A DNA stretch of 64,000 nucleotides from an uncultured Lachnospiraceae bacterium (GCA_947165025.1 CAMUYQ010000003.1:54747-118746), one strand, 5' to 3'; positions 6,720 to 63,825 are shown, numbered from the stretch's first letter. Made by a program: numbers and translations. The notes: generated by a model not told the origin, from the letters alone.

Positions 6720-6803
6720 GCAGAAATGGCGGAATTGGCAGACGCGCACGGTTCAGGTCCGTGTGAGGTAACACTCATGAGGGTTCAAGTCCCTTTTTCT
6801 GCA
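6720..6803 (+). tRNA. tRNA-Leu (anticodon CAG), long variable arm, no encoded CCA
   Basis: Hand-folded cloverleaf. Acceptor GCAGAAA/TTTCTGC; D-stem GCG/CGC with a GG loop; anticodon stem CACGG/CCGTG with loop TTCAGGT; 17-nt variable arm; T-arm GAGGG-TTCAAGT-CCCTT; discriminator A. Confidence 0.85.
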
Positions 6804-7099: not shown

Positions 7100-7852
7100 A
7101 TGGATCATAAAATGAAGATCGCCATATGCGATGATGAAAAGCCCATAAGGGACTATATAGAAAAATGCGTGCGTGAAGTAAAGGCAGATGTTGAAGTTGT
7201 TCAATATCCGGATGCTTCAGAAATGGTTGCGGCAAGTTTTGATGCAGATATACTATTCCTGGATATCCAGATGCCGGGTATGGACGGGATGAAAGCAGCT
7301 CGGATACTTCGGACTATGGGTAACAAAACTATCATAGTTTTTGTTACTGCTGTTGAGGAGTATGTATTCCAAGCGTTTGATGTTGGGGCGGTGCAATACA
7401 TAGTAAAGCCGTTTGACAGAAACAAACTTATAGATACGATCAAAAAGACGATAGCTCTTGCCGAAGAGAGAAACAGCATAGATGCTGCCCTTTCAGATAT
7501 GAATGAGTCAAATGAAGCTAAAAGATCTATAACGATCAAGTCTGATGGCGTTAACAGACGGGTTATATTGACGGAAATAATGTATGCTGAAGTGTTTGAA
7601 CATCGCATAATACTCCATATGAATGATAAGGAGTGTATTAACTATTACGGGAAGATGTCTGATCTTGAAATGGTTGCCGGAAAAGACTTTTATCGGGTGC
7701 ACCGGGCGTATCTGATCAATCTTGCGTATGTTAAGTCATATGATTCGAAGAGCGTTTCGATTTCAGGAGAGGAGATCCCCGTGGCTCGGGGAAAATATCA
7801 GGAACTTGTAAAAGCATACTTGTCATACTACACACGTAAGGAGCATTTATGA
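7100..7852 (+). CDS. LytTR-family response regulator (REC + LytTR DNA-binding domain)
   Basis: REC motifs ICDDE, FLDIQMPGMDG, VTA, VKPF; C-terminal LytTR signature FYRVHRAYLINLAYV. Confidence 0.9.
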   Translation: MDHKMKIAICDDEKPIRDYIEKCVREVKADVEVVQYPDASEMVAASFDADILFLDIQMPGMDGMKAARILRTMGNKTIIVFVTAVEEYVFQAFDVGAVQYIVKPFDRNKLIDTIKKTIALAEERNSIDAALSDMNESNEAKRSITIKSDGVNRRVILTEIMYAEVFEHRIILHMNDKECINYYGKMSDLEMVAGKDFYRVHRAYLINLAYVKSYDSKSVSISGEEIPVARGKYQELVKAYLSYYTRKEHL

Positions 7853-9255
7853 TCGACTATATTGTTGCCAATTTTGCGTCATTCGCTGATGCTTTTACTC
7901 ATTGTCTGGTAGTCATATATATAATCTGTGTGTCTTTTCTGTTATCAGTCTGGATAAAACCGTTTGTTCAAATCCGCAGGGCGTCATCTCTTACCGCGAT
8001 CATATATTTCATTTTCAGATTTATATACTATTTGATACCTGTAGATAGTGATTTTATCAGGGGGATTGCGTTTGGGATCATACCCGTAGTATTCCTTGTT
8101 TCATGGCTTTTGGATAATAAAAGGAATCCGGTCCAGAAACTGTTCCTTTCAATTCTCTATTATCTGATAAGCTGGCTGACATATGAGATTTCAGTGGAGA
8201 TCGGTCTTTTTGAAAGAGATATCATGTACAGATTTGAATGGTATCATTCGGATGCCAATGCCATTGCGATCGAGTTTATCATATGGAATTTGATCGAATA
8301 TGCTTTTGCGGTAGTTATTCTGTATATTTCAGTGCGCCTTATTCAGAAGGCATATATAAGAAAAATGGAAGAATTGTCATGGAAAGAACTGTTGATGCTG
8401 CTAGCCCCGTTCTGGACTATTCTTTTGGTAAAACCAATTATGTTGGCGTATTTCACTCTCTGGATGGATGGTATAGCAAATGGGAGTATAAATGAAAACA
8501 TACCGTCAAGCATTTATCGCCTGGTGTTCTGTGTTCTGTCGCTACTGTCTGTAATTATCATTATTACGCTGTATCAGAGGATCAAAGAGGCCACGGATGA
8601 TAAATATGCAAGACAGTCCCTTGAGAATCAGATCGAGGATATCCGGCGACATATGGGGCAGATAGAGGATATGTATGAAAAGATGAGAGCGATGCGGCAT
8701 GACATGGGCAATCATATGGCTGTGATAGAGGGCCTTGCAGATAAGGGAGAGAAGGATGCCCTGAGTGAGTATATCGGACAGTGGAAAAAGAATTATGATG
8801 AGTCAGGAACACTGGTTAAGACCGGAAATCCGATCATCGATGTTGCAATTTCGGAGTTTGCCGCAAGATTTAAAGAGTCTGACATACCGTTTGAACAGTC
8901 ATTTCAGTATCCCGAACAGCTTACGATCAATCCATTCGATCTGTGTGTTGTGGTAACAAATGCGCTTCAGAATGCATATGAAGCATCTGTAAACACGAAA
9001 ACACCCTCAGTATCACTGACATCTGTTGTCCGTGATCAAACGTTTATCATCAGTCTGAGAAACCATACAGACAACAAAGTGTATATAAATTTCGAAGAAG
9101 ATATACCGGTTTCGTCAAAAAAGGAAGACGGTCATGGGTACGGACTAAAGAATATAAGGACAATCGCCCGTAAGTACAAGGGTGATATCGAAATACGTCA
9201 AGAAGTTGAAAAAGACGGGTATATGTTTGTTCTGAACGTCATGTTTATTGGCTGA
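7849..9255 (+). CDS. AgrC/HPK10-like membrane sensor histidine kinase (GHKL)
   Basis: About six N-terminal hydrophobic helices; H-box MRHDMGNHM; N-box NALQNAYEA; G-box GHGYGLKNI; start overlaps the RR stop (ATGA). Confidence 0.85.
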   Translation: MIDYIVANFASFADAFTHCLVVIYIICVSFLLSVWIKPFVQIRRASSLTAIIYFIFRFIYYLIPVDSDFIRGIAFGIIPVVFLVSWLLDNKRNPVQKLFLSILYYLISWLTYEISVEIGLFERDIMYRFEWYHSDANAIAIEFIIWNLIEYAFAVVILYISVRLIQKAYIRKMEELSWKELLMLLAPFWTILLVKPIMLAYFTLWMDGIANGSINENIPSSIYRLVFCVLSLLSVIIIITLYQRIKEATDDKYARQSLENQIEDIRRHMGQIEDMYEKMRAMRHDMGNHMAVIEGLADKGEKDALSEYIGQWKKNYDESGTLVKTGNPIIDVAISEFAARFKESDIPFEQSFQYPEQLTINPFDLCVVVTNALQNAYEASVNTKTPSVSLTSVVRDQTFIISLRNHTDNKVYINFEEDIPVSSKKEDGHGYGLKNIRTIARKYKGDIEIRQEVEKDGYMFVLNVMFIG

Positions 9256-9257
9256 AC

Positions 9258-9327
9258 CGCAATTCACGACTGAAAAAGTGCGCTTCACGTCGAATCTATT
9301 GTTTATTTCTACAATTTCCCGATACTA
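9258..9327 (+). promoter_or_regulatory. Class-1 LytTR-type operator, copy 2, plus CCCGATAC box
   Basis: CGCAATTCACG (9258-9268) and TGCGCTTCACG (9279-9289), 21 bp apart; CGATA at 9320, 41 bp after the proximal repeat. Confidence 0.55.
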
Positions 9328-9360
9328 AAAGCATAATATGAAATGGTTTTTTCGCGTGGG

Positions 9361-9429
9361 TGCAATTCACGTCGAAAAAAGTGCATTTCAAGTAATGTGG
9401 GTTTATTTGATGCTGTCCTATTACGATAG
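9361..9429 (+). promoter_or_regulatory. Class-1 LytTR-type operator, copy 3, plus TACGATAG box
   Basis: TGCAATTCACG (9361-9371) and TGCATTTCAAG (9382-9392), 21 bp apart; CGATA at 9424, 42 bp after the proximal repeat. Confidence 0.55.
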
Positions 9430-9574
9430 AACGATTAGATACAGCATCAAATGTGTCAAGTTCGCAGAACTTGACATGTAGCGTCGGCTCTTCGACGAAG
9501 TCGAATCAGGATGAGCCGACGTTCTCGGGTTGCAAGGAAACGGATTTCATAAGAAGAACAGGAGGTTCAGGAAG
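9406..9574 (+). promoter_or_regulatory. Inverted repeat around the putative -10, plus a multi-hairpin GGA-rich 5' leader for the first cluster gene
   Basis: 11-bp inverted repeat TTTGATGCTGT/ACAGCATCAAA (9406-9416 / 9441-9451). Hairpin 9454-9476 (10 bp). Nested hairpin 9482-9521 with unpaired TCAGGAT. Further GGA motifs run up to the SD AGGAGG. Confidence 0.5.
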
Positions 9575-10351
9575 ATGTCAACAATAAGACAAACAGCAGG
9601 CAGTAATTATTTTGATGAGACCTATGGCGGAGGTAGTTCAGGCTATTCCAATGATTTTCTGTCAGGGTTAAGTGTAAATACCAACAGTAATGGCGGCGGT
9701 TCATTCGATCTGGCGGATTATGCCATGATCAAGAACGGATCATACGGCAAGCTTATGAAGGCGTACTACGGACAGGAAAAAGCACAGAAGGCCGTAGAAT
9801 CCAAGGAGAGCACTTCCAAGCTTACACAGATGGCCGGTAATGCCGGAGGAATGGCAAATGCAGCAAAAGCCCTGATGGATGATTCATTATGGCAGAAGAA
9901 GACCATAACGGAGAAGGACGAAAAGACCGGAGAGGAAACGACTAAAGAAGATTATGACTGGAAGGCCATCACAAAGGCTGTTAAGGGATTCATCGAAAAC
10001 TATAACAACACAGTGGCTGGTGCAGGTGAATCCGATACAAAGGGTGTGTTGAGGAATGCTTCCTTCATGGTCAAGACAACGGCGGCATACAAGAAAACAC
10101 TTGAAAAGGCCGGCATCACGATCACAAGCGGAAATAAGCTCGAACTTAACGAGGAAGACCTTAAGAATGCGGACATTTCAACGCTTAAGACACTGTTTAC
10201 GGGTTACAACTCTTTTGCCGACAAGATGGCGACAAAGGGTAACACGATAGCAAACGAAGCTGCAAGTGCCGGCGGAACATATACGAGCAATGGAACGTAT
10301 TCCAAAGCACTGTCACAGATAGTATCGACCAAGATCGATACCAAAGAATAA
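9575..10351 (+). CDS. Short FliD (flagellar cap, HAP2)-like protein
   Basis: Start at ATG 9575 behind SD AGGAGG (the track ORF starts at an upstream TTG). By eye, FIENYNNTV, SLWQKK, GVLRNAS and LEKAGITITSGNKLELNEEDLKNADISTLKTLFTG resemble the Firmicute FliD motifs FVDxYN, LWEEKAK, GLLRND and GITT...GKLxxDExKL...LF. No signal peptide. Confidence 0.45.
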   Translation: MSTIRQTAGSNYFDETYGGGSSGYSNDFLSGLSVNTNSNGGGSFDLADYAMIKNGSYGKLMKAYYGQEKAQKAVESKESTSKLTQMAGNAGGMANAAKALMDDSLWQKKTITEKDEKTGEETTKEDYDWKAITKAVKGFIENYNNTVAGAGESDTKGVLRNASFMVKTTAAYKKTLEKAGITITSGNKLELNEEDLKNADISTLKTLFTGYNSFADKMATKGNTIANEAASAGGTYTSNGTYSKALSQIVSTKIDTKE

Positions 10352-10396
10352 CAAGGATGTTAACGATAATCACGGAAGATTAAGGAGGATTAGACC

Positions 10397-11044
10397 ATGT
10401 CAATGAATGTAGGAACAGATTATACGAATTACAAAACCGGATACACTAACACAGAAAATCAGAAAAAGGATGTCGATATTTCCGAAAAGACTGCAGATCA
10501 GGGCAAGACTGCGTATGTCAAGGAAGGTGTTGTTTATGATAAGTCCGGAGAAAAAGTAGACAACTCAACATATTCGATCAATAAGATGAGCGCAACTGAC
10601 AGGGCTGCGATCGTCGATCAGCTGAAGGAAGATGCAAGGCAGAGGGAACAGCAGCTTGTAAGCATCGTGCACAGAACAATAGCTGATCAGGCCGGAGCAT
10701 ATGGAAAAGCTACCGGAAATGATATCTGGACACTCCTTTCTGGCGGAAAGGTTACTGTAACTGCAGCCGAAAAGGCACAGGCACAGAGAGATATCAGTGA
10801 AGACGGGTATTACGGTGTTAAGCAGACATCCCAGAGATTGTTTGACTTTGCCTGTGCGCTTGCCGGGGATGACGTGGATAAGATGAAAGAAATGCAGAAG
10901 GCCATGGAGAAGGGTTTCAAGCTTGCTACAAAATCATGGGGTAAGGAACTTCCGGGCATATGCGGAGAAACATTTGATGCGGCTAACAAACTGTTTGAGG
11001 AATATTACAGGTCAAAAGATCCTGGAGCAGCATTGTCAGAATAG
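10397..11044 (+). CDS. Hypothetical protein (cluster gene 2)
   Basis: SD AAGGAGGA 6 nt upstream; conserved-looking C-terminal helical segment GYYGVKQTSQRLFDFACALAGDD...EKGFKLATKSWGKELPGI; no TM helix or signal peptide. Confidence 0.7.
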   Translation: MSMNVGTDYTNYKTGYTNTENQKKDVDISEKTADQGKTAYVKEGVVYDKSGEKVDNSTYSINKMSATDRAAIVDQLKEDARQREQQLVSIVHRTIADQAGAYGKATGNDIWTLLSGGKVTVTAAEKAQAQRDISEDGYYGVKQTSQRLFDFACALAGDDVDKMKEMQKAMEKGFKLATKSWGKELPGICGETFDAANKLFEEYYRSKDPGAALSE

Positions 11045-11148
11045 GTGGCGTAAAGTTTTCATAGAAAACTTTGCGGCACGTTGGCCACGACTTCCACGCA
11101 GTGGAATTGTTATGTCGTGGCTCTCAAGAGTAGGAGAGGACTAAAGCC

Positions 11149-11736
11149 ATGAACATAACCATGAAAGGTGCCGGCCTTCTCGGAATGGGTAATCCCGGTC
11201 TTAAAAGTACACAGGACCGTCTGGACAGAATGGTCAAAAGGGATAATAAAATAGCGTTCTTTGAGCAGCAGAAAGAGAATCTGAAGACTATGAAGACGGA
11301 TTCGCTTGAAGATATCTCAAGAAAACTGGAAATGCTTCATGGTTATGATGATCAGATCGCGCTTGCAAAGGTTGAGTTCAATAACAGTCAGGTTTTCCAT
11401 ATGCTTGATGAAGCAAGGGAACTTGGCGAGAAGATTGCTGAAGCAGCCGAGAAGAATGCTCCTAAGACTCCAGAAGAAAGACGCGAGGATATGATCGAGG
11501 AGGTTACAGGAGTAGATATGGACGGTGGAATACTTGGAGAAGTGATGGACGAACTCGAGGATATCACGGAAGAGATGACGGAGAAAGCCGCGGAAGAGCT
11601 TGAAGAAATGACAGAGGAGACTCTTTCGGAGCAGGATCTGAAACAGGCATTGTATCAGGAACCTTTAAGCACTGAGGATCCTGTGGAAGATGATCTGTTG
11701 CAGGATAAGTATAAACGGATCGATTACCGGGTATAG
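11149..11736 (+). CDS. Hypothetical acidic coiled-coil-like protein (cluster gene 3)
   Basis: Complete ORF with SD GGAGAGGA; E/D-rich C-terminal half; structured upstream intergenic region (hairpins within 11050-11130). Confidence 0.65.
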   Translation: MNITMKGAGLLGMGNPGLKSTQDRLDRMVKRDNKIAFFEQQKENLKTMKTDSLEDISRKLEMLHGYDDQIALAKVEFNNSQVFHMLDEARELGEKIAEAAEKNAPKTPEERREDMIEEVTGVDMDGGILGEVMDELEDITEEMTEKAAEELEEMTEETLSEQDLKQALYQEPLSTEDPVEDDLLQDKYKRIDYRV

Positions 11737-11778
11737 GAAACGGATTTCCTATCATAATAGTCAAAGGAGGACGAAATC

Positions 11779-12327
11779 ATGGCATTATCAGGTATCATGA
11801 CAACATCGCTGTTGTCGGCAAATAATTCAATGAAGATCGCAAGAGTACAACAGGGCGCCAAGAACCAGATGGACGGACACGCCGGTGTGCTTGATGCAGA
11901 GATAAAGCTAGACAGCGCCCGGGGCGGGGATGTTAAGAAAAAACAGGAAGAGCTTGAGGAGACAAAGAAAAAGGCTTCCGAACTTGAAGAATCCACTATG
12001 AATACGCTTTCGGCTACATCCGATGATCTGAAGAAGGCGGCTAAAGACGATCTTGAAGCCAGAAGGGCAGAGAAGGCTGAAGAGAAGAAGAAAGCCGAAA
12101 AAGCAGCAGAGAAAAAGAGGGTGGAGAAGAAGGCTACCGAAGAGAGGATCGAGAAGATCGGAGAAGCAGCAACATCTGAAACCGCAGAGATATCTGATGG
12201 TGATCATAGTGTATCGGTAGAGGGAACATTGTTTGAAGGCGCCACGATCAATGTCGTTGTTGACGGTGTAACTCCAAGCACAGGCGCAACCGGAACAATA
12301 GGCGTATCGATGGACGAAAAAGCCTGA
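11779..12327 (+). CDS. Hypothetical K/E-rich protein with weak flagellin-N-terminus-like start (cluster gene 4)
   Basis: SD AAGGAGGA. N-terminus SLLSANNSMKIARVQQG...DGHAGVLDAEIK loosely recalls flagellin LSANN...DDAAGLAISEKM; the rest is K/E-rich low complexity. Confidence 0.6.
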   Translation: MALSGIMTTSLLSANNSMKIARVQQGAKNQMDGHAGVLDAEIKLDSARGGDVKKKQEELEETKKKASELEESTMNTLSATSDDLKKAAKDDLEARRAEKAEEKKKAEKAAEKKRVEKKATEERIEKIGEAATSETAEISDGDHSVSVEGTLFEGATINVVVDGVTPSTGATGTIGVSMDEKA

Positions 12328-12341
12328 CAGAGGGTTATAAT

Positions 12342-12923
12342 ATGAAAATCACGGGATCATACAATCAATATGAGCTGAATAATATGGAATCAACAGGCAG
12401 TAAGCCCAAGGCAGAAAAGGAATACGCCAACTATCTGATGAAGAAGTATCCGTGCCTGTCTCCAGGAAAGAATTCTGTTGTATCTGTAACAAGTGGATTA
12501 TTGCGTAAAGCCATGTCCGATGAGAAGACCGGTGAGTGGCTTGAGAGAGAATTATCAAAGGCTCCCGATTATATCAAACAGGCTCAACAGTCTGCGATTG
12601 CCCATGGTTCAACCCTGAAGTTCTGTTCTATAGAGTTCGGAGAGGAGTATTCCACGATGTGTACGCTTACTGTAACAGACGGCGGAGGAACTGATCCGGA
12701 CATTGATGAATGGCTTGAGAAGGTTAAGAAGGAAAGGGCTGAGCGAAAAGCCGAGGAAAAGAAACAGGAAGAAGAACGCGCAGAGGTTCGCCGACAGGAA
12801 ACAGAAACATATAAGATGGAACTAAAGGGCAGGGATCTTGAAGATCTGACAAGACAGTTCGCCATGAATCTGACAACACAAGCCTCAACGCTTTCGAACG
12901 GTTCAATTGATATAAAAGCGTGA
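12342..12923 (+). CDS. Hypothetical protein, member of an in-cluster paralogue family (cluster gene 5)
   Basis: Shares the pattern VS[VIL][ST]xxG...M..D.....W ... [IF]xFGE with the products of 16684-17607 and 17619-18254. Confidence 0.65.
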   Translation: MKITGSYNQYELNNMESTGSKPKAEKEYANYLMKKYPCLSPGKNSVVSVTSGLLRKAMSDEKTGEWLERELSKAPDYIKQAQQSAIAHGSTLKFCSIEFGEEYSTMCTLTVTDGGGTDPDIDEWLEKVKKERAERKAEEKKQEEERAEVRRQETETYKMELKGRDLEDLTRQFAMNLTTQASTLSNGSIDIKA

Positions 12924-12934
12924 TCATTTCAATG

Positions 12935-13035
12935 TAAACAATTATCTTCAAAATGCCGATATATATTTAAGATAAGTGATAATGTCGCCTGATCAGAAAA
13001 GGAGTTCGGATCAGTATTGTCAAGGAGGATGACAC
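12935..13035 (+). promoter_or_regulatory. Sigma-D/sigma-28-type promoter plus hag-like leader (GGA hairpin + GGA-containing SD)
   Basis: TAAA (12935-12938), 16-nt spacer, GCCGATAT (12955-12962). Hairpin 12989-13014 presents AAGGAG in its loop. SD AAGGAGGA at 13023-13030. Confidence 0.6.
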
Positions 13036-13689
13036 ATGAGCGGGATAAATGCGGTTAATAACGGTAAATCCGGTGAATTTCTACAGGGAATTCAGACGAC
13101 AATAAAGGAAAAACTGAATAATGCTATTGAAGAAGGAGCATTCTCCAACGCATTTGATGAAGGAGTAGCTGCAACCCTTTCAATATCGTCATCCGGGATC
13201 GCTCAGGCTAGTCGGGCAGAAAGAGAAGATATCATTCGACAATCTATAGTCCAGCTGGATGGCGGGTATAGAAAGTTTAATCTTACAGATGAAGAAGCCT
13301 GTATTCTCAAGAGTTTCCGGTTGGAAGAATACTATGATATCCGGAATAGAATGAAGAATGAGGATATTAACGCCTATAATGATCTTTTAAAGTCTGAAGA
13401 GATCGCCGACAAGAACTCCGACCCGAGCGCAAAGTTTAAAGTATATTCAAAAGCATATAACTGGGCTTACGGGGACGTTTTTGACAGAATCCATAAGGAA
13501 AATCCGGAAGTTGATATTTATGTAAGATCACCGGGGACGGAGGAAAATCATAACTATCAAATGAGAAATAACAGAACCTCACTTATTATTTCCACGGATG
13601 AAATAAAACTCCTTCAGTCAAGAAATAACAACGATAAGAAAGCACAGGAAGAACTGTGGAATAGGATCCTGGAAAAGATCCGATCATGA
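13036..13689 (+). CDS. Hypothetical protein (cluster gene 6)
   Basis: Complete 217-aa ORF with a strong SD; no recognisable motif. Confidence 0.65.
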   Translation: MSGINAVNNGKSGEFLQGIQTTIKEKLNNAIEEGAFSNAFDEGVAATLSISSSGIAQASRAEREDIIRQSIVQLDGGYRKFNLTDEEACILKSFRLEEYYDIRNRMKNEDINAYNDLLKSEEIADKNSDPSAKFKVYSKAYNWAYGDVFDRIHKENPEVDIYVRSPGTEENHNYQMRNNRTSLIISTDEIKLLQSRNNNDKKAQEELWNRILEKIRS

Positions 13690-13707
13690 GTTTGATGAAA
13701 TGACAAG

Positions 13708-13787
13708 TCGGGATATATTAAAGGAAAGCATTAATATCGCTTGATCCGAAAAGGAGTTCGGATTCATATGATCAAGGAGGATATCAC
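13708..13787 (+). promoter_or_regulatory. Second copy of the hag-like leader (GGA hexaloop hairpin + SD)
   Basis: Hairpin ATCCGAA-AAGGAG-TTCGGAT (13744-13763). SD AAGGAGGA at 13774-13781. A degenerate TCGGGATAT box at 13708 has no convincing -35. Confidence 0.5.
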
Positions 13788-14756
13788 ATGAAGGTCAATA
13801 ACACATCCTTTTTTATGAATGATGGCGTATTTGGAACATCGAATACATCGGAGCGTTCAAACAATAATCCATCCAAATCATCCGGAATATCGATAAACGG
13901 CAGTTCTTTTGCCATGCAGAATGATCCCATTGCGGCCAAGCGGGAGGAAGCCCGTAAGAAAGCAATGAAGGTCATCGGGGATGCGTTTGCTAATGACCGG
14001 AAGATTGATGAAGACCTTGATGCAAGAAGCGAGCATATCCGAAAGCTGAAAACTGTTCAGAATGACGCAAATAAAGTGATCAACGAAATAGAATCAGACC
14101 GTGCTGCTCTTCGAGATGAGTATGGTATTGATACGGACAGTCAGGAAGAGAAAGATCTCCAGCTTCTTGAGAAGGAATTCAGGGCACGCCAAAAAGGTTC
14201 TGATGTTCAACTTACAAAGGAGGATATGGAGGAGATCGCTAAGATTAAGGCAAAGGGCCTTACGGAATATCAGAGCAGGTCGATGGAAATGCTTGATTAT
14301 GAGAAACCATATCTTGATGCAGCATATGAGGCTAAAGCCGGTATAGAAGAGGAAAATCTAACCATTGCAGCAATAAAGCGTGAACTTCCGAAGAATGACG
14401 CAATGTTGAAAGCCCAGGATAAAGCCGATGCCATAGAAGATGCTGCATCAAAAGAGATCATGGGGATGCTTGTCGATGAAGCGAAGGAACAAATCGACGA
14501 AGAGGCAAAGGAGGCCGAAGAAAAGGCCAAGGAGAAACAGGAGAAGGAAGAAGAACTCCAGGAGAAGATCGATGCCGCAAGGGAAAGACGTAAGGAAGAG
14601 GAAGAACTCACTGAAGACATCGTGGAATCTGCCCAGGATCTTAATGTTACAACAGCTAACATAAATGATGCACAGAAGGACATTAAGGATATGATGAACA
14701 AACTGGCACTCGTAGAAGAAGATATGAAGGGTGCCGCTGTGGATCAAAAATCATAA
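13788..14756 (+). CDS. Hypothetical coiled-coil-like protein (cluster gene 7)
   Basis: S/N-rich N-terminus, then a long K/E/D-rich helical-looking region; 322 aa. Confidence 0.65.
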   Translation: MKVNNTSFFMNDGVFGTSNTSERSNNNPSKSSGISINGSSFAMQNDPIAAKREEARKKAMKVIGDAFANDRKIDEDLDARSEHIRKLKTVQNDANKVINEIESDRAALRDEYGIDTDSQEEKDLQLLEKEFRARQKGSDVQLTKEDMEEIAKIKAKGLTEYQSRSMEMLDYEKPYLDAAYEAKAGIEEENLTIAAIKRELPKNDAMLKAQDKADAIEDAASKEIMGMLVDEAKEQIDEEAKEAEEKAKEKQEKEEELQEKIDAARERRKEEEELTEDIVESAQDLNVTTANINDAQKDIKDMMNKLALVEEDMKGAAVDQKS

Positions 14757-14793
14757 AGCATATTGATTGGTACTACCATTCAATATAGATCGG

Positions 14794-14824
14794 TCGGGTC
14801 ACGGAAAACGTGGCCCGATTTTTT
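14794..14824 (+). terminator. Intrinsic terminator ending the first transcription block of the cluster
   Basis: 10-bp stem TCGGGTCACG/CGTGGCCCGA (one G-U pair), loop GAAAA, followed by TTTTTT. Confidence 0.7.
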
Positions 14825-14829
14825 GTTTA

Positions 14830-15010
14830 TAGTCGTTTTATGTCATATGATAGTCGATTTTTGAAATATATATAAATATGGGATTAAATTGGTCGATAGA
14901 TATTTCAGATGATTTATTTCTATAAGTGTATAAAGAATTTGCTAAGGAAAGCACCCCAGAGGATCCATGGAGAGGATCGTAATTATAATGAGGTGCTTTT
15001 ACTTTTTTAA
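14830..15010 (+). promoter_or_regulatory. Regulatory cassette: class-2 LytTR-type operator + TAAA-N15-GTCGATAG promoter + GGA leader with terminator-like hairpin
   Basis: TAGTCGTTTTA (14830) and TAGTCGATTT (14851), 21 bp apart. TAAA at 14873-14876 and GTCGATAG at 14892-14899. GCTAAGGAAAGC at 14941. Hairpin AAAGCACC/GGTGCTTT (14948-14999) followed by a T-run. Confidence 0.55.
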
Positions 15011-15056
15011 CAGGGGGAGTAGTAAGCCGGCAAGGGGAAACCGGAAGAAAAAACTT

Positions 15057-15764
15057 ATGAAAATTTGGATCTGTGACGGAGAGAAAAGTGATATTGATGA
15101 GTTGAAGAGCCTTATCGATTGTTACAAAAAGAAAAAAGATATAGGGAATGTTGAAGTAAGAGTGTTTGGTGATGCTGCTGAACTTATACAGGAAATGATT
15201 GACGGTGATGCTGCAGATATTATTATTTTAGATGCAATGATAGCGGAAAATGGAACTGAGGATCTTCTTAAAAAAATACGAACTAGGAATTCAGATTCAA
15301 AAGTCATTCTGCTTATTTCGGAAATGAGACATGTACTTGACGGATATCAGATGAAAACAGATTGGATTCTTTTGAAAGAAAACCCCTCTGACAGATTTTT
15401 TGAATGTATGGATAGGCTGTGTTCAGACATCCGGGAGAAACGAAAAATCCTTTCCTTGTCGTGTGTAGAGGGAGATTATGTTTTCAGCCGATCGAAAATA
15501 CTGTTTATAGAGAGTGAAGGTCATCGCTGTACAATTCATGAATTGAATGGAGATTATCACATATACCGTCGCCTGGATGAACTCGAAGAGAGAATAGATT
15601 CGCCGTATTTTATACGAATTCATCAAAGCTATCTAGTCAATGTCAAATACATACAACGTATAAGCAATTACGAACTAACAATGGCAGACGGTTGTATCTT
15701 GCCAGTATCTAAGGCGAGATATAAACAGGTTCAGCGTGAATACGCAGAAAATAAAATGAATTGA
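15057..15764 (+). CDS. Orphan LytTR-family regulator with a divergent receiver-like N-terminal domain
   Basis: C-terminal LytTR signature FIRIHQSYLVNVKYI. The N-terminal REC-like fold has ICDGE in place of the DD/DE pocket, and IIILDAMI. Start moved to ATG 15057 because the track start 14967 lies inside the leader hairpin. Confidence 0.75.
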   Translation: MKIWICDGEKSDIDELKSLIDCYKKKKDIGNVEVRVFGDAAELIQEMIDGDAADIIILDAMIAENGTEDLLKKIRTRNSDSKVILLISEMRHVLDGYQMKTDWILLKENPSDRFFECMDRLCSDIREKRKILSLSCVEGDYVFSRSKILFIESEGHRCTIHELNGDYHIYRRLDELEERIDSPYFIRIHQSYLVNVKYIQRISNYELTMADGCILPVSKARYKQVQREYAENKMN

Positions 15765-15766
15765 TA

Positions 15767-15910
15767 TAGTCGTTTTATGCATTATATGATCGATTCAGGA
15801 CATTCCTATAATATGAATTGCGAAATGTGCCGATAACTATATCAGATAATTGTATAAGCTAAGGATAGCAGCTGTGGTCAAAGGAATGAACTTTGATGAC
15901 AGTCTTTTTT
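15767..15910 (+). promoter_or_regulatory. Regulatory cassette, copy 2 (class-2 operator, GCCGATAA box, GGA leader, terminator-like hairpin)
   Basis: TAGTCGTTTTA at 15767 and TGATCGATTCA at 15787. GCCGATAA at 15829-15836. GCTA-AGGA-TAGC at 15858-15869. Hairpin 15872-15902 with GGA at its apex, then TCTTTTTT. Confidence 0.55.
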
Positions 15911-15926
15911 ATAAGTGGGGGGTAGT

Positions 15927-16502
15927 ATGAACATTTTTTTTGAGAAACCTGAAGAACAGAAGATAACCAGCCAAAGGGAGCTGGTGGAGCATTTACTCAA
16001 TAATTCCGGTGATGTTGATGAGATGTCGGAGGAAAATCGCAGAGAGATGGACGCCCGGATAATGGCAAAGCTTAAATCCGGAAAAAAGCTTTCGCAAAAG
16101 GAACTGGATTATCTTAGGAGAACAAACCCCATACTTTATGCTCAGGCAATGAGAGTACAGAGAATGGCGGAGGCGCTCGAAGAACAGCTTAAGCATGCGA
16201 GAAGCAAGGAGGAAGTTAACCAGATCTTTACTACTGCGTTGTCCGGTATATCCAAGAATGATCCTGACCGTGAATACCTTGTGGCTTCTTTCAATCGTAT
16301 TTCTACAGAGTTTCGCAAATCTAAAATGTATAATAAGCTGCTGACCACCACTGAGGAAGCAAGGAAGAAAAAGAAACAGGTAGATCCGGATAAGGATCTG
16401 TTTAAGGAAGATAATGATGACAAAGACGGGTTTGATCTGAGCAGTTGGAGTCCTTTACGTGAGTTGTATGAACAGATGCCATCTTTTGTGGCCGGAGCGT
16501 GA
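15927..16502 (+). CDS. Hypothetical helical protein (cluster gene 9)
   Basis: ATG 15927 behind a GGGGGG SD (the track ORF starts at an upstream GTG inside the SD); K/E-rich, no motif recognised. Confidence 0.65.
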   Translation: MNIFFEKPEEQKITSQRELVEHLLNNSGDVDEMSEENRREMDARIMAKLKSGKKLSQKELDYLRRTNPILYAQAMRVQRMAEALEEQLKHARSKEEVNQIFTTALSGISKNDPDREYLVASFNRISTEFRKSKMYNKLLTTTEEARKKKKQVDPDKDLFKEDNDDKDGFDLSSWSPLRELYEQMPSFVAGA

Positions 16503-16518
16503 CGATTCTTTGCTATTC

Positions 16519-16660
16519 TTGATGATTTATATGGACGATAGTCGTTTCATGGCATTTATATAATACAGACTTATAACATGTCGATAATAGTATCAGACAA
16601 CTGAATAAGCAAGGGATTGCGGCTGTGTTCAAAGGATTGAATTTTGGAGACAGTTTTTTT
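16519..16660 (+). promoter_or_regulatory. Regulatory cassette, copy 3
   Basis: Half-sites TTGATGATTTA (16519, degenerate) and TAGTCGTTTCA (16539). GTCGATAA at 16580-16587. GCAA-GGGA-TTGC at 16609-16620, which covaries with GCTA...TAGC. Hairpin 16623-16653 followed by TTTTTTT. Confidence 0.55.
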
Positions 16661-16683
16661 ATACGAAATAAGGGGGATTAAGT

Positions 16684-17607
16684 ATGACAGGAACAGCAGT
16701 AGCATCATGTTTCAATTACAGCAGTTACGCAAGTTATCAGACTTCAAGTAAGAAGACGGGTGAGGTATTGTTTTCCGATAGTATTGATGTCAATAGTGAC
16801 AAGGTGAAAAAAGAGGAGTCCCAGAGGGGATCTGTTATGGAGGAATACTATGCAAGAAAGCCTCAGTACAAAGAAAGGGCAAAAGAACGAGTTGATGGCG
16901 GTTATGTTGTTCTAAAGTGTGCCGGGATTTCCACCGAGGACATGGAGAACATGTCCATGAATGAGTTTAAAGATGTGATGAGCAAGGTTATTGCCGGGAT
17001 TCCGCATCATGCCACAAGACCATATGATGAAGAAACGGTACTTATTTCCGAAGAAGGTTGGGAAAACATGAAGAAGGATCCTGATTATGCAGCATATGTG
17101 GTGGGTCTGCTTCAGGAAGACAGATCCTTTGCAAATCCGTTCTTTGCGCTGGGGGATAAAGGAAGTTATATTGTGCAGCATTTTGGCGCATCTCCGGAGG
17201 ACTATCATGGAGTCGGATTTAGCAAGATATACGGTGGTACTGCTGCGGGAGCACGTTCGATGTATAACTCGGCGAAGGCAGGAGGAATTGAGACGCGTGG
17301 CCCACAGGCGGATCTTCAGCCTCCGTCAGACTATAATCTTTGGGAAGAGAGAAGAAAAGCAAAGAGGCGTAAAAGAAAAGAGCAGCTTGATGAAGAAATC
17401 ATGTCTCAATATTATCAGAAGAAGCATTTGAACGATCTGTATGAAAAGAAACTTTACGAGAACAAGGAACTTGCACGATCTCGCAGTGTGGCTGAAATGA
17501 TAGGATCACGGAGCAATACATCACATGCGCCGAAGCTTTCTATGGCAAGCGGTACGGCGTTTTATGAAGCGGCGTTTATGACATCTGATATAACTGAAAT
17601 GTTTTAG
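16684..17607 (+). CDS. Hypothetical protein, paralogue family member (cluster gene 10)
   Basis: LISEEGWENMKKDPDYAAYVV ... IVQHFGASPED aligns by eye with the next gene and with 12342-12923; basic KRRKRK segment near the C-terminus. Confidence 0.65.
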   Translation: MTGTAVASCFNYSSYASYQTSSKKTGEVLFSDSIDVNSDKVKKEESQRGSVMEEYYARKPQYKERAKERVDGGYVVLKCAGISTEDMENMSMNEFKDVMSKVIAGIPHHATRPYDEETVLISEEGWENMKKDPDYAAYVVGLLQEDRSFANPFFALGDKGSYIVQHFGASPEDYHGVGFSKIYGGTAAGARSMYNSAKAGGIETRGPQADLQPPSDYNLWEERRKAKRRKRKEQLDEEIMSQYYQKKHLNDLYEKKLYENKELARSRSVAEMIGSRSNTSHAPKLSMASGTAFYEAAFMTSDITEMF

Positions 17608-17618
17608 GAGCATCTTGT

Positions 17619-18254
17619 ATGAACAATATGATCACAATCAGCAGTATGAGTCGCGCATTCCGACAGACACCGGTTCGCAGACCAAGTAAAAATGATGTAA
17701 GAGGAGCATCATTTGCGGACTGCGTTCAAAAAGAAGCGGATAAACAGAACATTCCGAATAACGAAACTATGCGTAGTGTAGACGAATATCGGACATACCT
17801 GAACGATAAGCTTCAGAATCTCTCATTTGATTCATCAAACAGAATGGACACCACGATGGTATCCTTATCGGATGCTGGTATTAATCGTATGATGAAGGAT
17901 CCCGAATATGAGAAATGGGTTATCTGTCAGGTTAGTTCCATGATTTCAACAGATGATCCGTTCAGCGGTATGGCAGGCGGAAAGTTTATCATAATGCGCT
18001 TTGGAGAGAGAGAATCAGATCTTAGTGTAACAATAGAGAGAGCCGGTTTTTCAAACGGACAGGACAGTATGATGCCAAAGACTCATAAAGATGAAGATGA
18101 GAATTTCTGGAACAGACGGCAAAACCGGCTTGAAGAGCAGATTGATGTAAGTGAGGAGATTCGTGAAAGAGAAGCGGAAGGTCTTTCAATAATGATCAAT
18201 CCGTTTTTGGATATAAGCGGGAAAAAAGCCATTGAGGGTAATACCGCCAACTGA
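17619..18254 (+). CDS. Hypothetical protein, paralogue family member (cluster gene 11)
   Basis: SLSDAGINRMMKDPEYEKWVI ... IIMRFGERESD; starts 11 nt after the upstream stop codon. Confidence 0.65.
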   Translation: MNNMITISSMSRAFRQTPVRRPSKNDVRGASFADCVQKEADKQNIPNNETMRSVDEYRTYLNDKLQNLSFDSSNRMDTTMVSLSDAGINRMMKDPEYEKWVICQVSSMISTDDPFSGMAGGKFIIMRFGERESDLSVTIERAGFSNGQDSMMPKTHKDEDENFWNRRQNRLEEQIDVSEEIREREAEGLSIMINPFLDISGKKAIEGNTAN

Positions 18255-18256
18255 AA

Positions 18257-18403
18257 TAGTCGTTTTATGTCATATTATAGTCAGTTTATGCAGAGGGTGT
18301 TTAGTGGTTATACAGACACGACGATAAAACTTTCAGATCAATATAAGAGCTAAGGATAGCGGCTGTGTTCAAAGGAGTGAACCTTGATCACGGTCGTTTT
18401 TTT
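18257..18403 (+). promoter_or_regulatory. Regulatory cassette, copy 4
   Basis: TAGTCGTTTTA (18257) and TAGTCAGTTTA (18278), 21 bp apart. GACGATAA at 18320-18327. GCTAAGGATAGC at 18349-18360. Imperfect hairpin 18359-18395 followed by TTTTTTT. Confidence 0.55.
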
Positions 18404-18488
18404 GTAATCAAAAATAAGATACCGCTCGGACCTTTCCGGAGAGCGGTGCGGCTCTGACTGACAGATGAGTCGCGGAAAGGGGGACAAT

Positions 18489-20678
18489 ATGTCATTTGCA
18501 GTACAAACAAGTTTTAATCAAACGTATCAGTATGGGAGCTTTGGCTCTAAATCTAATCGTGGAGAGGATTCTATAGGAAGAGAATTCATGGGAAGCGCTA
18601 CTTCACGAACCACTTCATCTGATAAGGGTGAAAATATCGGCGTTATGACGATTGGTAACATAGGGTATATTGCCAAATATGCGGACTCATCGACAGAAGA
18701 AGATCCTATCATCAAAGTCGGAGATTATGAGGTCAGGGTAAATGATGTTGATCCGCATAATGCTACTAAGGTAGAGATGTTTGCGCTGATGAGCTATATG
18801 GATGATAAAGGTCTCATCGAGAACACCGGCATGAAATCATTTGGAAAAATGACAGCGTATGGGGCACAGGCGGAATATAACGGATTTTGTAGTGATCTAT
18901 CCGATCCTGAGCTGGCATGGACAAAGAACAGAGACTGGACAGCGATACTGCAAAACGCAAAAGAAACATTTTTTGGTATTCCGCAGGCATATAATCAAGG
19001 GCTTAACTGCGAGAACATTGTTGCCGGACTTGAGCGTTGGGCAGAGACAAGGTGTGATAAAGGCGAGAATATAATTACAGAGGTATCCGGTGAGAGTGAA
19101 GTGTCAAGTGATATGGATGCCACATGTATTCCGGTTGTCGGCAAAGGATATGGCGATCCGGCCGCATACACCAGGTGTATTACAGCTAATATCAAGACCA
19201 AGGAAGCCTATGTACAGCAGAATTCCAACGGAGAAGTGATTTATTCGTACAGGGAGACGGAGCAGTCATTCAATATCATCATCAATTCTGACGGTAAGGA
19301 TAAAACATACACGATAACCGGTATTGACGAAAACGGCGAGGAGTTTGAAAGAGCGTTTGATCCATATGATCTGGATCCTAAAGATATGGATTATCCCGAG
19401 TTCGCTGCGATGTGCATGTACATCAGACAGACGGATGAAACAGCTGATCTGATAGCTAGCAGCTATTTTACGGATACAAGCTATTTCGACGGGATATTTG
19501 ACAGAGGTGATCGTGTCAGCCTGCTGGGACAGTATGCTGAAGAGTATGGTAATTCTGAGCCGTCCCTTGCAAGCCTTGCGAATAAGATATTTGAAGCTAT
19601 AAGTACATTTTTCGACAGAGCAATGAGGGGAAACGGATTCTCTGAAGAAGCATTCTCACTCCTGTTTGCGGACCTTGATGATATCGAGACGCAGGAAAAG
19701 ATCAGTGCGCTCAAAAACGGATATACCTATTCTGACAACACAACCGATCCGGTATCCGAAACAATTGTTTCAAAACACAATCAGTACACGGATCCTGATA
19801 CCGGTGAGATTGTTCCGGTGAATATCAGATATATCACAGCCTATACTGATGAGGGGATCTCCTGTAAGGAAATAAAAGATGAAGGGGGAAAAATATCACA
19901 GAGAGATTTATGGAGTCTATCTTATGATTCTCCGGACAGTTATGAAAAGGTTCAGGAGTTCTTAAAGAGTTTTTCGAAGGATCAGAATCTTACATTTGCT
20001 CCACAGGAGAAGTTTTGGAAGGATTTCATGAAGGATGATTTTGATATTGACGGATTCCGTGCATATTACGATTCCACCGATAACGGAAAGATAAATGTAG
20101 AGAAGGGATTACAGGAGGGCAAGAATCTGGGAGATCTCTTGACCGAGCCTTTTGCCGAATATATCAACAACACTCATTTTATCGGCAAGGTATTTACGGA
20201 GCAGGAAATGTGGGATAACTGGAATGCCCAAATAGAAGCAAACCAGAGGACTTTGGGCTTAAACTGTACAGGAGATATAGCATCCACAGATTCCAGGGAT
20301 AAGGTCCGTGAAATGAGAGAACAGGCATTTTTGGGGATTGGAAAGAATGCTTCGGAGAACGTAAAAAAAGCCTGGCTGGAGGCTGCAGATGAAATTGGAA
20401 TGGACGGACAGGGATTATCGGCTACCGGAACACTTGATCATATCCCGCAGTTTATGATACAGCGATTTATCCGCCAGTATAACGGATATGATCCGGATGA
20501 TGTTCTGGGGAGTACGGTAAGCTCGGCCATCCAGGCGGCTCAGGACGCTATTTATGCTCTTGACCATCCTCTCGAGCCTGATACAACAAGGAGTTCGAAA
20601 GTACTTGCGGCGAGGGAGAAAGAGAGAGCTTTCTATGAGCGTTTTATAGAAAAACTCATGGGAATGAGAGCGCTCTAA
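18489..20678 (+). CDS. Large hypothetical protein (729 aa from ATG 18489; cluster gene 12)
   Basis: ATG 18489 behind SD AAAGGGGGA (the track ORF starts 24 nt upstream); no TM helix, signal peptide or catalytic motif recognised. Confidence 0.65.
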   Translation: MSFAVQTSFNQTYQYGSFGSKSNRGEDSIGREFMGSATSRTTSSDKGENIGVMTIGNIGYIAKYADSSTEEDPIIKVGDYEVRVNDVDPHNATKVEMFALMSYMDDKGLIENTGMKSFGKMTAYGAQAEYNGFCSDLSDPELAWTKNRDWTAILQNAKETFFGIPQAYNQGLNCENIVAGLERWAETRCDKGENIITEVSGESEVSSDMDATCIPVVGKGYGDPAAYTRCITANIKTKEAYVQQNSNGEVIYSYRETEQSFNIIINSDGKDKTYTITGIDENGEEFERAFDPYDLDPKDMDYPEFAAMCMYIRQTDETADLIASSYFTDTSYFDGIFDRGDRVSLLGQYAEEYGNSEPSLASLANKIFEAISTFFDRAMRGNGFSEEAFSLLFADLDDIETQEKISALKNGYTYSDNTTDPVSETIVSKHNQYTDPDTGEIVPVNIRYITAYTDEGISCKEIKDEGGKISQRDLWSLSYDSPDSYEKVQEFLKSFSKDQNLTFAPQEKFWKDFMKDDFDIDGFRAYYDSTDNGKINVEKGLQEGKNLGDLLTEPFAEYINNTHFIGKVFTEQEMWDNWNAQIEANQRTLGLNCTGDIASTDSRDKVREMREQAFLGIGKNASENVKKAWLEAADEIGMDGQGLSATGTLDHIPQFMIQRFIRQYNGYDPDDVLGSTVSSAIQAAQDAIYALDHPLEPDTTRSSKVLAAREKERAFYERFIEKLMGMRAL

Positions 20679-20684
20679 AACTTC

Positions 20685-20766
20685 GCCAATATATTCAAGT
20701 CGAAATTTAATAAGAGTTATGGAAAGTGGCTGTGTTCAAAGGATTGAACTTTGGACACAGCTTTTT
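20685..20766 (+). promoter_or_regulatory. Partial regulatory cassette, copy 5 (GCCAATAT box, GGA-apex terminator-like hairpin)
   Basis: GCCAATAT at 20685-20692 with no TAAA at the proper spacing and no clear LytTR repeats. Hairpin GCTGTGTTCAAAGG/CTTTGGACACAGC (20729-20761) followed by TTTTT. Confidence 0.4.
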
Positions 20767-20821
20767 CGTACCAAACAAAGCATAAACAGACAGGAAAACA
20801 AGGACTGGAGGGTAGTGATTA

Positions 20822-27025: not shown

Positions 27026-27151
27026 CAAAAAGGGAGCCCTCCCCGACCAAAGTTTGGACTCCCTTAAGTGCAACAGACACAGAGTGCCTGCATGGTTATA
27101 ATACTCTACCTTGCAGCACTCTGTAAATAGCCGAGATTGAGAGGTGAGAGT

Positions 27152-55913: not shown

Positions 55914-55997
55914 AAACGGGTCATTATCACAACGCCTTCAAACGCCGACCGTTTTCTTGACTATGCATTACGCCGTATAATATAATCTTTTTCGGTT

Positions 55998-57221: not shown

Positions 57222-57310
57222 TGTGATAAATCACAATTTTTAAAAAAAATCACAAAAAAATAAAGGAAAAGAAAGGTCTTCACGTAATATTACAAGTGGA
57301 GACTTTTTTT

Positions 57311-58321: not shown

Positions 58322-58330
58322 ACGGCAGAA

Positions 58331-58469: not shown

Positions 58470-58474
58470 TTAAT

Positions 58475-60277: not shown

Positions 60278-60286
60278 CAGAGGAGA

Positions 60287-61411: not shown

Positions 61412-61414
61412 TAT

Positions 61415-62149: not shown

Positions 62150-62163
62150 GGAGGGGAAGTTAC

Positions 62164-63822: not shown

Positions 63823-63825
63823 TCA

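Follow-up and report, generated by a model that had tools for sequence, protein, structure and literature searches.

The closest described systems are flagellin leaders controlled by CsrA. The Bacillus subtilis hag leader, part of the Hag-FliW-CsrA partner switch, holds two sites, BS1 in a hairpin (A51-A55) and BS2 at the SD (Shine-Dalgarno sequence; C75-G82), spaced by about 24 nt (PMC8523840), and this two-site design is bridgeable by a CsrA dimer (PMC8523840; PMC13443453). For C. difficile fliC, a clostridial flagellin gene under FliW-CsrA control, a comparable leader has been predicted, with BS1 TGACAAGGATGT and BS2 CTAAGGAGGG (PMC8523840). All six motile Roseburia/Eubacterium genomes examined in one study carry csrA in the flagellar locus, and a sigma-28 consensus of TAAA / MCGATAa has been described for Butyrivibrio fibrisolvens (PMC3720852). 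CsrA proteins of R. inulinivorans, A. rectalis, Oribacterium and an uncharacterised Lachnospiraceae inhibit the swarming motility of a B. subtilis chassis in which CsrA repression of hag is read out as swarming (PMC13443453).

Here we analyzed a window of 64,000 nucleotides (the whole stretch of DNA, from an uncultured Lachnospiraceae bacterium), in which an earlier note had described two GGA-hairpin leader families at 9535-13787 and likened one pair of leaders to that of hag. The window contains an integrated mobile element of a rumen Lachnospiraceae bacterium. It runs from a tRNA (6720-6803), continues with a LytTR two-component system and 13 unknown genes, and extends to a relaxase and an integrase. 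Many island proteins have no family assignment. Searches of Pfam and NCBIfam detected no flagellin domain in genes 9575, 11779, 13036 and 13788 (named by their start positions), the sole matches being weak and sub-threshold, to FliD_C and FapA. Protein 13036 has a disordered N-terminus and a fold without a match in the PDB, and the cargo proteins carry no signal peptide. The features of the block are as follows (SD, Shine-Dalgarno).

9535-9548, + strand: family (b) motif, copy 1, AGGAAACGGATTTC; CGGA at 9541-9544
9558-9574, + strand: SD region of gene 9575, ACAGGAGGTTCAGGAAG; GGA at 9561-9563 and 9570-9572; ATG at 9575
10349-10393, + strand: leader of gene 10397, two more GGA-loop hairpins, then SD TTAAGGAGGATTAG
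11733-11752, + strand: family (b) hairpin, copy 2, 8-bp stem ATAGGAAA/TTTCCTAT, loop CGGA; loop GGA at 11742-11744
11762-11772, + strand: SD of gene 11779, CAAAGGAGGAC; GGA at 11766-11768 and 11769-11771; ATG at 11779
12935-12962, + strand: predicted sigma-28/SigD-type promoter of gene 13036, TAAA-N16-GCCGATAT
12989-13014, + strand: family (a) hairpin, copy 1, CTGATC-A-GAA / AAGGAG / TTC-G-GATCAG; loop GGA at 13001-13003
13018-13034, + strand: SD of gene 13036, in the loop of a 5-bp hairpin TGTCA-AGGAGGA-TGACA; GGA at 13024-13026 and 13027-13029; ATG at 13036
13709-13716, + strand: decayed copy of a -10 box ahead of gene 13788, CGGGATAT
13743-13764, + strand: family (a) hairpin, copy 2, GATCCGAA / AAGGAG / TTCGGATT; loop GGA at 13753-13755
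13771-13785, + strand: SD region of gene 13788, ATCAAGGAGGATATC; GGA at 13776-13778 and 13779-13781; ATG at 13788
14792-14820, + strand: intrinsic terminator, 12-bp stem and then a T-run, at the end of transcription unit 13036-13788

An exact-match search recovered both repeats of the earlier note: for family (a), GAAAAGGAGTTCGGAT at 12996 and 13748 and TCAAGGAGGAT at 13020 and 13772; for family (b), the 14-mer AGGAAACGGATTTC at 9535 and 11735. Folding likewise reproduced the 7-bp stem reported at 13744-13763 (ATCCGAA/TTCGGAT, hexaloop AAGGAG), which a G-U pair lengthens to 13743-13764, and the similar hairpin at 12989-13014, whose loop is identical and whose stem contains a single A-G mismatch. 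The family (b) hairpin described at 11735-11750 forms with loop CGGA, on a stem of 8 bp (11733-11752) and not 6 bp, and overlaps the stop codon of gene 11149. The other copy of the 14-mer is present as claimed but gives merely a weak hairpin, since at 9535-9548 just the 4 bp GAAA/TTTC can pair and the minimum-energy fold lacks it. The leader of gene 10397, which was not in the earlier note, bears TAACA-AGGA-TGTTA (10349-10362) and TAATC-ACGGAA-GATTA (10367-10382). No U-tract follows the module's hairpins, and we therefore rejected them as terminators.

A second GGA overlaps the SD in every leader (AAGGAGGA or CAGGAGG, 9-14 nt before the ATG). Loop GGA and SD GGA are 23 and 26 nt apart for both 13036 and 13788, 24 and 27 nt for 11779, and 19 and 28 nt for 9575. 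This range of 19-28 nt resembles that of hag and lies within reach of one CsrA dimer by the hag measure (~24 nt). The two-site anatomy proposed earlier, a loop GGA plus an SD GGA, is real and conserved.

Families (a) and (b), previously treated as separate, are by their sequence variants of one module: a stem, GAAA-NGGA-TTTC, the returning stem, 7-12 nt and (T)CAA(A)GGAGGA, with the outer stem variable. At the position of the 9535 motif, which recurs in L002, L013 and L145, locus L001 has instead a family (a)-type hairpin, GCGCCGAAAAGGATTTCGGATTGCGC. In relatives, the loop of the hairpin at 12989-13014 reads AAGGAG, AAGGAT, AAGGAA, ATGGAA or ACGGAA, GGA being constant; the hairpin at 13743-13764 is kept in L001 and L002, and the second hairpin of the 10397 leader has in L001 the loop AGGA on stem AATCA/TGATT. 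The hairpin at 11733-11752 persists at the distant homologue loci L146, L148, L149 (loop TGGA) and L150 (stem ATGAAA/TTTCAT), and in L002 its equivalent stays with gene 11779 despite a different gene inserted upstream. Besides homologues of 9575, 11779, 13036 and 13788, the module precedes DUF6033 genes and another two genes that are unrelated (L016:7956 and L013:16353). Among homologues sampled by protein homology and not by motif, a GGA hairpin was found before every 13036 homologue with its own CGATA-box leader (window, L001, L002, L003, L005, L013, L014 and L018). Of six newly fetched loci with an 11779 homologue, four retain the hairpin, in one an insert interrupts it and the sixth is without it. 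Operon-internal homologues in L004, L006-L009, L016 and L147 have no GGA hairpin, so the element is dispensable for the genes themselves.

The same hairpin, CCGAAAAGGATTTCGG, together with its SD context, occurs in bona fide flagellin leaders, a class in which the earlier note had suggested looking for it, within this genome; the leaders found come from gut metagenome contigs and one metagenome-assembled genome (MAG), of organisms other than this one. There, CTTCCGAAA-AGGA-TTTCGGGAG stands 11 nt upstream of TTCAAGGAGGAAAAC-ATG, with 21/24 nt from loop GGA to SD GGA, and the genes encode Flagellin_N (1.6e-44) and Flagellin_C (9e-29). They sit behind TAAA-N16-GCCGATAT, whose boxes and spacing match 12935-12962, and they are chromosomal, far from any such island. 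A covariance model (R2) built from island leaders only finds these flagellin leaders at full length with 33.5-35.1 bits, while control loci with the same 16-mer hairpin reach at most 21 bits. Neither the window nor the flagellin leader had a relevant hit at or near the gathering score of any Rfam family.

In its sequence design the module matches the ribosome-binding region of a Lachnospiraceae-type flagellin mRNA. We consider it probable (roughly 0.6) that the cargo genes of the mobile element have received copies of two-site CsrA operators of the hag/fliC type, CsrA itself being the predicted binder. Since the leader is shared with a real flagellin gene, the unrelated island genes are probably switched by CsrA. 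In the proposed mechanism, copies of the module came to stand ahead of unrelated cargo genes on the integrated element; a CsrA dimer would bridge the loop GGA and the SD GGA, blocking ribosome binding as on hag; and FliW would capture CsrA during filament export and lift the repression. Translation of each cistron, also of the operon-internal 11779 and 13788, would then follow that of flagellin.

The predicted promoter at 12935-12962 fits the B. fibrisolvens sigma-28 consensus and is identical in kind, in boxes and 16-nt spacer, to that of the L085 flagellin gene; relatives have GCCGATAT, GTCGATAT, GACGATAT or AGCGATAT at the corresponding place. Island promoters also bear LytTR-type direct repeats, which makes sigma-28 dependence uncertain. 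The leaders of 13036 and 13788 are 80% identical over ~85 nt. The promoter copy of 13788 has decayed: in the leader alignment its spacer is 11 nt short and CGATA is absent. An RNA contig (13408-13769) spans it, and such read-through into 13788 makes this leader operon-internal and not a separate hag-like transcript. We found no promoter for gene 11779. Long RNA contigs from four bovine rumen metatranscriptomes cover the block, in which 14792-14820 is the only strong intrinsic terminator.

Island genes are strongly represented in rumen RNA, which could also mean that the hairpins act in cis without CsrA, as mRNA stabilisers or ribosome stand-by sites that raise the yield of highly expressed genes, flagellin included. 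They would then resemble the STAB-SD of Bacillus thuringiensis cry genes, with an SD-like sequence placed in a leader hairpin. The family (a) loop AAGGAG in the window is a perfect SD-like sequence, and flagellin, which also carries the module, is very highly expressed. However, the loops conserve only GGA, and for CGGA, TGGA, GGGA, ATGGAA and ACGGAA pairing to the anti-SD is poor; moreover, the copies at 11733 and 13743 lie inside polycistronic RNA and not at a 5' end. We regard this explanation as unlikely.

The predicted folds do not sequester the SD, so control needs a trans-acting factor, in line with the CsrA reading. This factor might instead be another RNA-binding protein, of the island or the host, that reads GGA hairpins, the likeness to CsrA sites being coincidental. 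Such a protein would agree with our tblastn search, which found no csrA in the window or the fetched loci (nor was fliW found in the window or any fetched locus), and with the wealth of island proteins lacking a family, 13036 with its unmatched fold among them. Against it, the same module on chromosomal flagellin genes far from islands points to a host factor tied to flagella, and Lachnospiraceae CsrAs inhibit swarming that depends on hag, which has such sites (PMC13443453). Overall, we judge a different reader of the hairpins to be quite improbable. Apart from CsrA, no factor is known to use sites of this design.

Taken by itself, the window offers weak evidence against chance: in 18/100 shuffles a 14-mer, with up to 2 mismatches allowed, was matched twice or more, leader folding z-scores are unremarkable (-0.1 to -1.0), and a Fisher test on naively counted GGA-loop hairpins, island against other leaders, gives p = 0.15. 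The case beyond chance comes from shared leaders on non-homologous genes, conservation in relatives, the flagellin leaders and covariation. In a set of 22 distinct hairpins from Lachnospiraceae of the rumen or gut, 10 have CG and 7 have AU at pair 5-20, and at pair 6-19 there are 7 with CG, 4 with GC, 4 with UA and 1 with UG; the stem covariation score exceeds 500/500 shuffles and all slid controls. GGA is present in 22/22, preceded by A, C, T or G, an apparent invariance that is inflated because all hairpins were chosen and aligned by that motif and the alignment was partly built by eye around the conserved core.

Duplication of the genes, which the earlier note had named as a refuting explanation, does not account for the leader pairs: neither 13036/13788 nor 9575/11779 shows protein similarity, the genes are not paralogues, and the leader similarity ends at the ATG. 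The shared leaders might still be neutral junction copies from cassette shuffling that supply only an SD. The leaders are indeed mosaic, with pieces such as CAGGATGAGCCGAYGTTC recurring in different ones, inserts of 80-90 nt come and go, and islands differ in their gene order. Selection is instead indicated by stem changes that compensate each other while the loop GGA stays invariant, over a range of 60-98% protein identity; the promoter part of 13788 decayed while its hairpin and SD were retained, and the module is conserved on flagellin genes too, so that we give neutral copying little credence. Near-perfect palindromes downstream of promoter-like boxes (ATCCGAA-N6-TTCGGAT and ATAGGAAA-N4-TTTCCTAT) could suggest DNA operators for a dimeric repressor, but this is highly improbable, as the centre (GGA) is invariant whereas half-sites differ between copies in one genome, the G-U pairs that fit an RNA on the mRNA strand are A-C mismatches on the other strand, and copies 11733 and 13743 are not beside a working promoter.

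Under the CsrA-operator reading, a wider and more doubtful proposal is that the element copied the host flagellin operator onto a battery of cargo genes, plugging them into the flagellar assembly checkpoint of sigma-28 plus FliW-CsrA. Cargo proteins would then be produced only when the flagellar export gate stands open and might be exported through it, and many highly transcribed GGA leaders could soak up CsrA, altering host flagellin output. We consider this combination, with export and CsrA titration included, unlikely as a whole.

Compared with known systems, the island's other leader family (14941-20766) likewise has CGATA-box promoters and presents GGA in the loops of hairpins upstream of unknown genes. 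It consists of an AGGA mini-hairpin and a GGA-tipped terminator, and its terminator-like end with a U-tract suggests attenuation, whereas the module at 9535-13787, with no terminator and a hairpin paired directly with the SD, suggests translational control. In common with hag, the island has a predicted SigD/sigma-28-type promoter, a loop GGA ~24 nt upstream of the SD GGA and no terminator. Unlike hag, its genes encode unrelated non-flagellin proteins on a mobile element, with several copies inside operons; its leaders have no sequence homology to the hag leader, and the link to CsrA and FliW is here a predicted one. C. difficile fliC has a two-site design like that of the island (PMC8523840), and ACAAGGATGT in a hairpin loop of the 10397 leader matches the predicted fliC BS1, although the fliC sites are themselves predictions, the stem sequences differ and the island targets are not flagellin. 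The flagellin leader of uncultured Lachnospiraceae-type organisms is absent from Rfam, its host differs from that of the island, and it is longer (~185 nt), with four further hairpins upstream, where island leaders keep only the module's last 50 nt. In this leader (L085, L027, L131 and L140-L144), the 16-mer core CCGAAAAGGATTTCGG is identical to that of the L001 homologue of 9575, the SD context TCAAGGAGGA is that of the island, and the promoter TAAA-N16-GCCGATAT is that at 12935-12962.

The GGA-hairpin leaders lie among the cargo genes of a mobile element that has integrated here, as indicated by the order of a tRNA, unassigned genes, a relaxase and an integrase, followed by the chromosome. 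The features of the window (G+C content 43%) are as follows, with genes named by their start coordinates:

6720-6803, tRNA
7100-9255, LytTR-type response regulator and histidine kinase
9575-22135, thirteen genes without family assignment
10349-10393, leader of gene 10397, with the GGA-loop hairpins TAACA-AGGA-TGTTA and TAATC-ACGGAA-GATTA and a GGA-rich SD
22232-24625, minus strand, relaxase
after the relaxase, ParM-like protein
27137-28270, tyrosine integrase
after the integrase, chromosomal genes, including dnaG and rpoD at 58475-61411

Homologues of gene 13036 are confined to rumen and gut Lachnospiraceae MAGs and Butyrivibrio sp. CB08. In one related island, a BrnT/BrnA toxin-antitoxin pair is located directly 3' of the 11779 homologue (L146:3804-4317).

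An earlier note described two leader families in this block, namely family (a) ahead of genes 13036 and 13788 and family (b), a 14-mer ahead of genes 9575 and 11779, and as an observation this is borne out. All three repeats are exact and lie where that note placed them. RNA folding forms the hairpins at 12989-13014 (a stem of 6 + 3 bp with one A-G mismatch), 13743-13764 and 11733-11752 (an 8-bp stem, longer than described), but the copy at 9535-9548, in which a stem of at most 4 bp is possible, is unfolded in the minimum-energy structure. The 10397 leader, which falls inside the same range and had not been listed, adds two GGA-loop hairpins, one of which carries ACAAGGATGT, a match to the predicted BS1 of Clostridioides difficile fliC. 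In the comparison locus L001, the counterpart of the second of these hairpins has the loop AGGA on a matching stem. By themselves, hairpins and repeats are within chance: folding z-scores of the window leaders are non-significant (-0.1 to -1.0), two matches to the 14-mer with up to two mismatches were reached in 18 of 100 shuffles (non-significant), and a rough comparison of GGA-loop hairpin numbers between island and other leaders gave p = 0.15 (Fisher test, non-significant). These within-window statistics were excluded from support, and the argument is carried by comparative data.

Aligned on their loops, families (a) and (b) have a common core, GAAA-NGGA-TTTC, and a common SD context, (T)CAA(A)GGAGGA, which together we term the module. 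The 9575 homologue in L001 has a family (a)-type hairpin, GCGCCGAAAAGGATTTCGGATTGCGC, in place of the family (b) motif of the window, and in L002 an extra gene is inserted ahead of 11779 with the hairpin still attached to 11779. Matches to a covariance model revealed further copies ahead of two unrelated genes (L016:7956 and L013:16353), and the same hairpin and SD precede DUF6033 genes in loci obtained via 11779 homologues. Families of uncharacterised genes that bear this putative operator design, and are unrelated to one another, number at least six. Two samples of loci were chosen by protein homology, to 13036 and to 11779, with the motif not a criterion. The GGA hairpin is present in every 13036 homologue with its own CGATA-box leader and absent from operon-internal 13036 homologues (L004, L006-L009 and L016); at newly fetched 11779-homologue loci it is kept in four of six, split by an insert in one and absent from one. 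Among 22 distinct hairpins, GGA is invariant and preceded by A, C, T or G, an invariance of the core that is partly by construction because the set was partly collected around it. Stem pairs in these hairpins are compensatory (fifth pair CG 10, AU 7; sixth pair CG 7, GC 4, UA 4, UG 1), with a covariation score that none of 500 shuffles and none of the slid controls reached. What the loop variants (AAGGAG, AAGGAT, AAGGAA, ATGGAA, ACGGAA, CGGA, TGGA and GGGA) preserve is GGA rather than the ability to pair with the anti-SD.

Between the -10 box and the ATG, a stretch of approximately 85 nt, the leaders of 13036 and 13788 are 80% identical; right past the ATG the sequences diverge. Gene duplication, which the earlier note had named as an explanation that would count against its reading of the motifs, is ruled out as their source because the proteins behind them are unrelated: when the twelve block proteins were compared all against all by BLASTP, neither the pair 13036 and 13788 nor the pair 9575 and 11779 showed similarity. 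The promoter part of the 13788 leader has decayed, with 11 nt gone from the spacer and the box CGGGATAT versus CCGATAT, and hairpin and SD are intact. Given this decay, an RNA contig spanning 13408-13769 and the position of the sole strong terminator of the block at 14792-14820, gene 13788 is most likely the second cistron of a 13036-13788 transcript.

The protein encoded by 13036 (13036-13689, family A1) has no family in Pfam or NCBIfam, and its AlphaFold model (pLDDT 67 overall) comprises a disordered N terminus of 80 residues and a confidently predicted helical/beta domain at the C terminus (residues 80-217, pLDDT 70-94) for which a fold comparison with the PDB gave no match with E < 0.8. 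No signal peptide was evident by eye in 13036 and neighbouring proteins. Some leaders contain inserts of 80-90 nt, in the window at 9449-9528 and 11037-11126. Further copies are present in the 9575-homologue leader of L146 and, in L145, within the family (b) hairpin that precedes the 11779 homologue, and a remnant lies ahead of the 11779 homologue in L001. In each, a hairpin of 9-10 bp precedes a nested one, which is built from an outer stem of 8 bp, an inner stem (for example TTCGAC-GAA-GTCGAA) and a 3' bulge of 7-8 nt. All copies have this architecture, and their sequences differ; the region 9440-9586, which includes one window copy, folds with z = -4.8. L002 and L013 have neither insert, and both are missing from rumen metatranscriptome RNA contigs (joints 9448>9529 and 11028/11037>11127). 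The inserts may represent either a small mobile repeat or a structure with a regulatory role.

Four bovine rumen metatranscriptomes cover 9200-15000 with RNA contigs 200-800 nt long, whose word depths add up to hundreds to thousands, and the dnaG-rpoD region (55900-63900) with short conserved fragments only. The island genes are clearly transcribed in vivo. Logan RNA contigs are fragmented and derive from mixed strains, and contig depth is a poor measure; the coverage reflects either very strong expression of the cargo genes or an island shared by many hosts. Tandem promoter-like units occur at 9279-9440, and also upstream of the 9575 homologue in L002 and L013. Direct repeats of the type CATTTCAAGT ... 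GCGTTTCACGT, with a spacing like that of LytTR sites, precede the CGATA boxes at 9318-9326 and 9422-9430. Given these repeats, sigma-28 is only a putative sigma factor for the island promoters, and the LytTR regulators of the island may drive promoters of this type, alongside or in place of sigma-28.

The earlier note had proposed searching bona fide flagellin leaders of this organism for the same hairpin; it does occur in such leaders in a related setting, in metagenome-derived loci of organisms other than that of the window. A metagenome pattern scan for the 16-mer CCGAAAWGGADTTCGG, an unspecific pattern, returned at least 120 loci, of which approximately 117 chance matches in unrelated metagenomes served as negative controls. 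In three of the loci, 11 nt separate the hairpin CTTCCGAAA-AGGA-TTTCGGGAG from TTCAAGGAGGAAAAC-ATG downstream of it, and the gene product begins MAGMVVQHNLNA and contains Flagellin_N (1.6e-44) and Flagellin_C (9e-29). We take the organisms to be of Lachnospiraceae type from the flagellin N terminus, MVVQHNL, alone. Five further loci, found via flagellins of 73-74% identity, have the same leader. It starts with TAAA-N16-GCCGATAT, with boxes and spacer length as at 12935-12962, the predicted promoter ahead of 13036, and both sets of boxes agree with the sigma-28 consensus of Butyrivibrio fibrisolvens, TAAA / MCGATAa (PMC3720852). This flagellin leader folds well (z = -3.4), and its 10-bp AGGA hairpin adjoins the SD. 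The entire leader (L085:10795-10990; also L027, L131 and L140-L144) is approximately 185 nt long with five predicted hairpins, has a second GGA-containing loop, TGCGGA-GGCGGAGATAAC-TTCCGCA, and is highly conserved although the flagellins are only 73% identical. Rfam gave no relevant match to the window or the flagellin leader at gathering or permissive thresholds. As a fair test of flagellin likeness, the covariance model R2 was trained on island leaders only. It matched all flagellin leaders over its full length (33.5-35.1 bits, E about 1e-9), whereas the control loci, which by construction have the same 16-mer hairpin, scored at most 21 bits, mostly with hairpin-only matches. The likeness therefore spans spacer, SD and start codon. 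On an unrelated metagenome contig of 41% G+C (L125:8620-8670), the same hairpin, TTTTTCCGAAATGGATTTCGGAAAA, lies 5 nt after a CCGATAAC box; this copy scores 21 bits with R2, has neither an evident SD nor an evident flagellar gene, and is possibly another relative of the module.

Loop GGA and SD GGA are separated by 19-28 nt in each of the four window copies and by 21/24 nt in the flagellin leader. In Bacillus subtilis hag, the CsrA sites are BS1 (A51-A55) and BS2 (C75-G82), and those predicted for C. difficile fliC are TGACAAGGATGT and CTAAGGAGGG (PMC8523840). No match to csrA was found by tblastn in the window or any fetched locus; all six genomes of motile Roseburia and Eubacterium examined earlier carry csrA in their flagellar locus (PMC3720852). 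In a B. subtilis chassis in which swarming reports CsrA repression of hag, swarming was inhibited by CsrAs of Roseburia inulinivorans, Agathobacter rectalis, Oribacterium and one uncharacterised member of the Lachnospiraceae (PMC13443453). A role of the hairpins as terminators or attenuators is ruled out, as no U-tract follows them. Since termination is ruled out and predicted folds of the window leaders do not sequester the SD, a trans-acting factor would be needed. To our knowledge, CsrA is the only such factor with this site design, and we therefore read the module as a candidate CsrA operator. In the earlier note's comparison with flagellin control by CsrA, the two-site design proves real, conserved and present on flagellin leaders; all steps from CsrA binding onward we infer. 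The module would act as a two-site CsrA operator of the hag/fliC type on individual island cistrons, with relief depending on FliW. Overall, sequence comparison partly supports a CsrA-type two-site leader.

We know FliW-CsrA in Gram-positive bacteria almost only as a flagellin-specific switch. The gene families bearing the module are carried by integrative elements of Lachnospiraceae that are abundant in rumen and gut, and their representation in rumen metatranscriptomes is strong. Should CsrA bind these leaders, the Gram-positive CsrA regulon would be wider than thought, the flagellar checkpoint would be open to mobile elements, and the uncharacterised island proteins would be candidate flagellum-associated or flagellum-exported factors. 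The idea is directly testable, given a short, well-defined module and Lachnospiraceae CsrAs that are functional in a B. subtilis strain. Compared with the flagellin leader, the island module is nearly letter-for-letter alike, and it is located on non-flagellin cargo of a mobile element.
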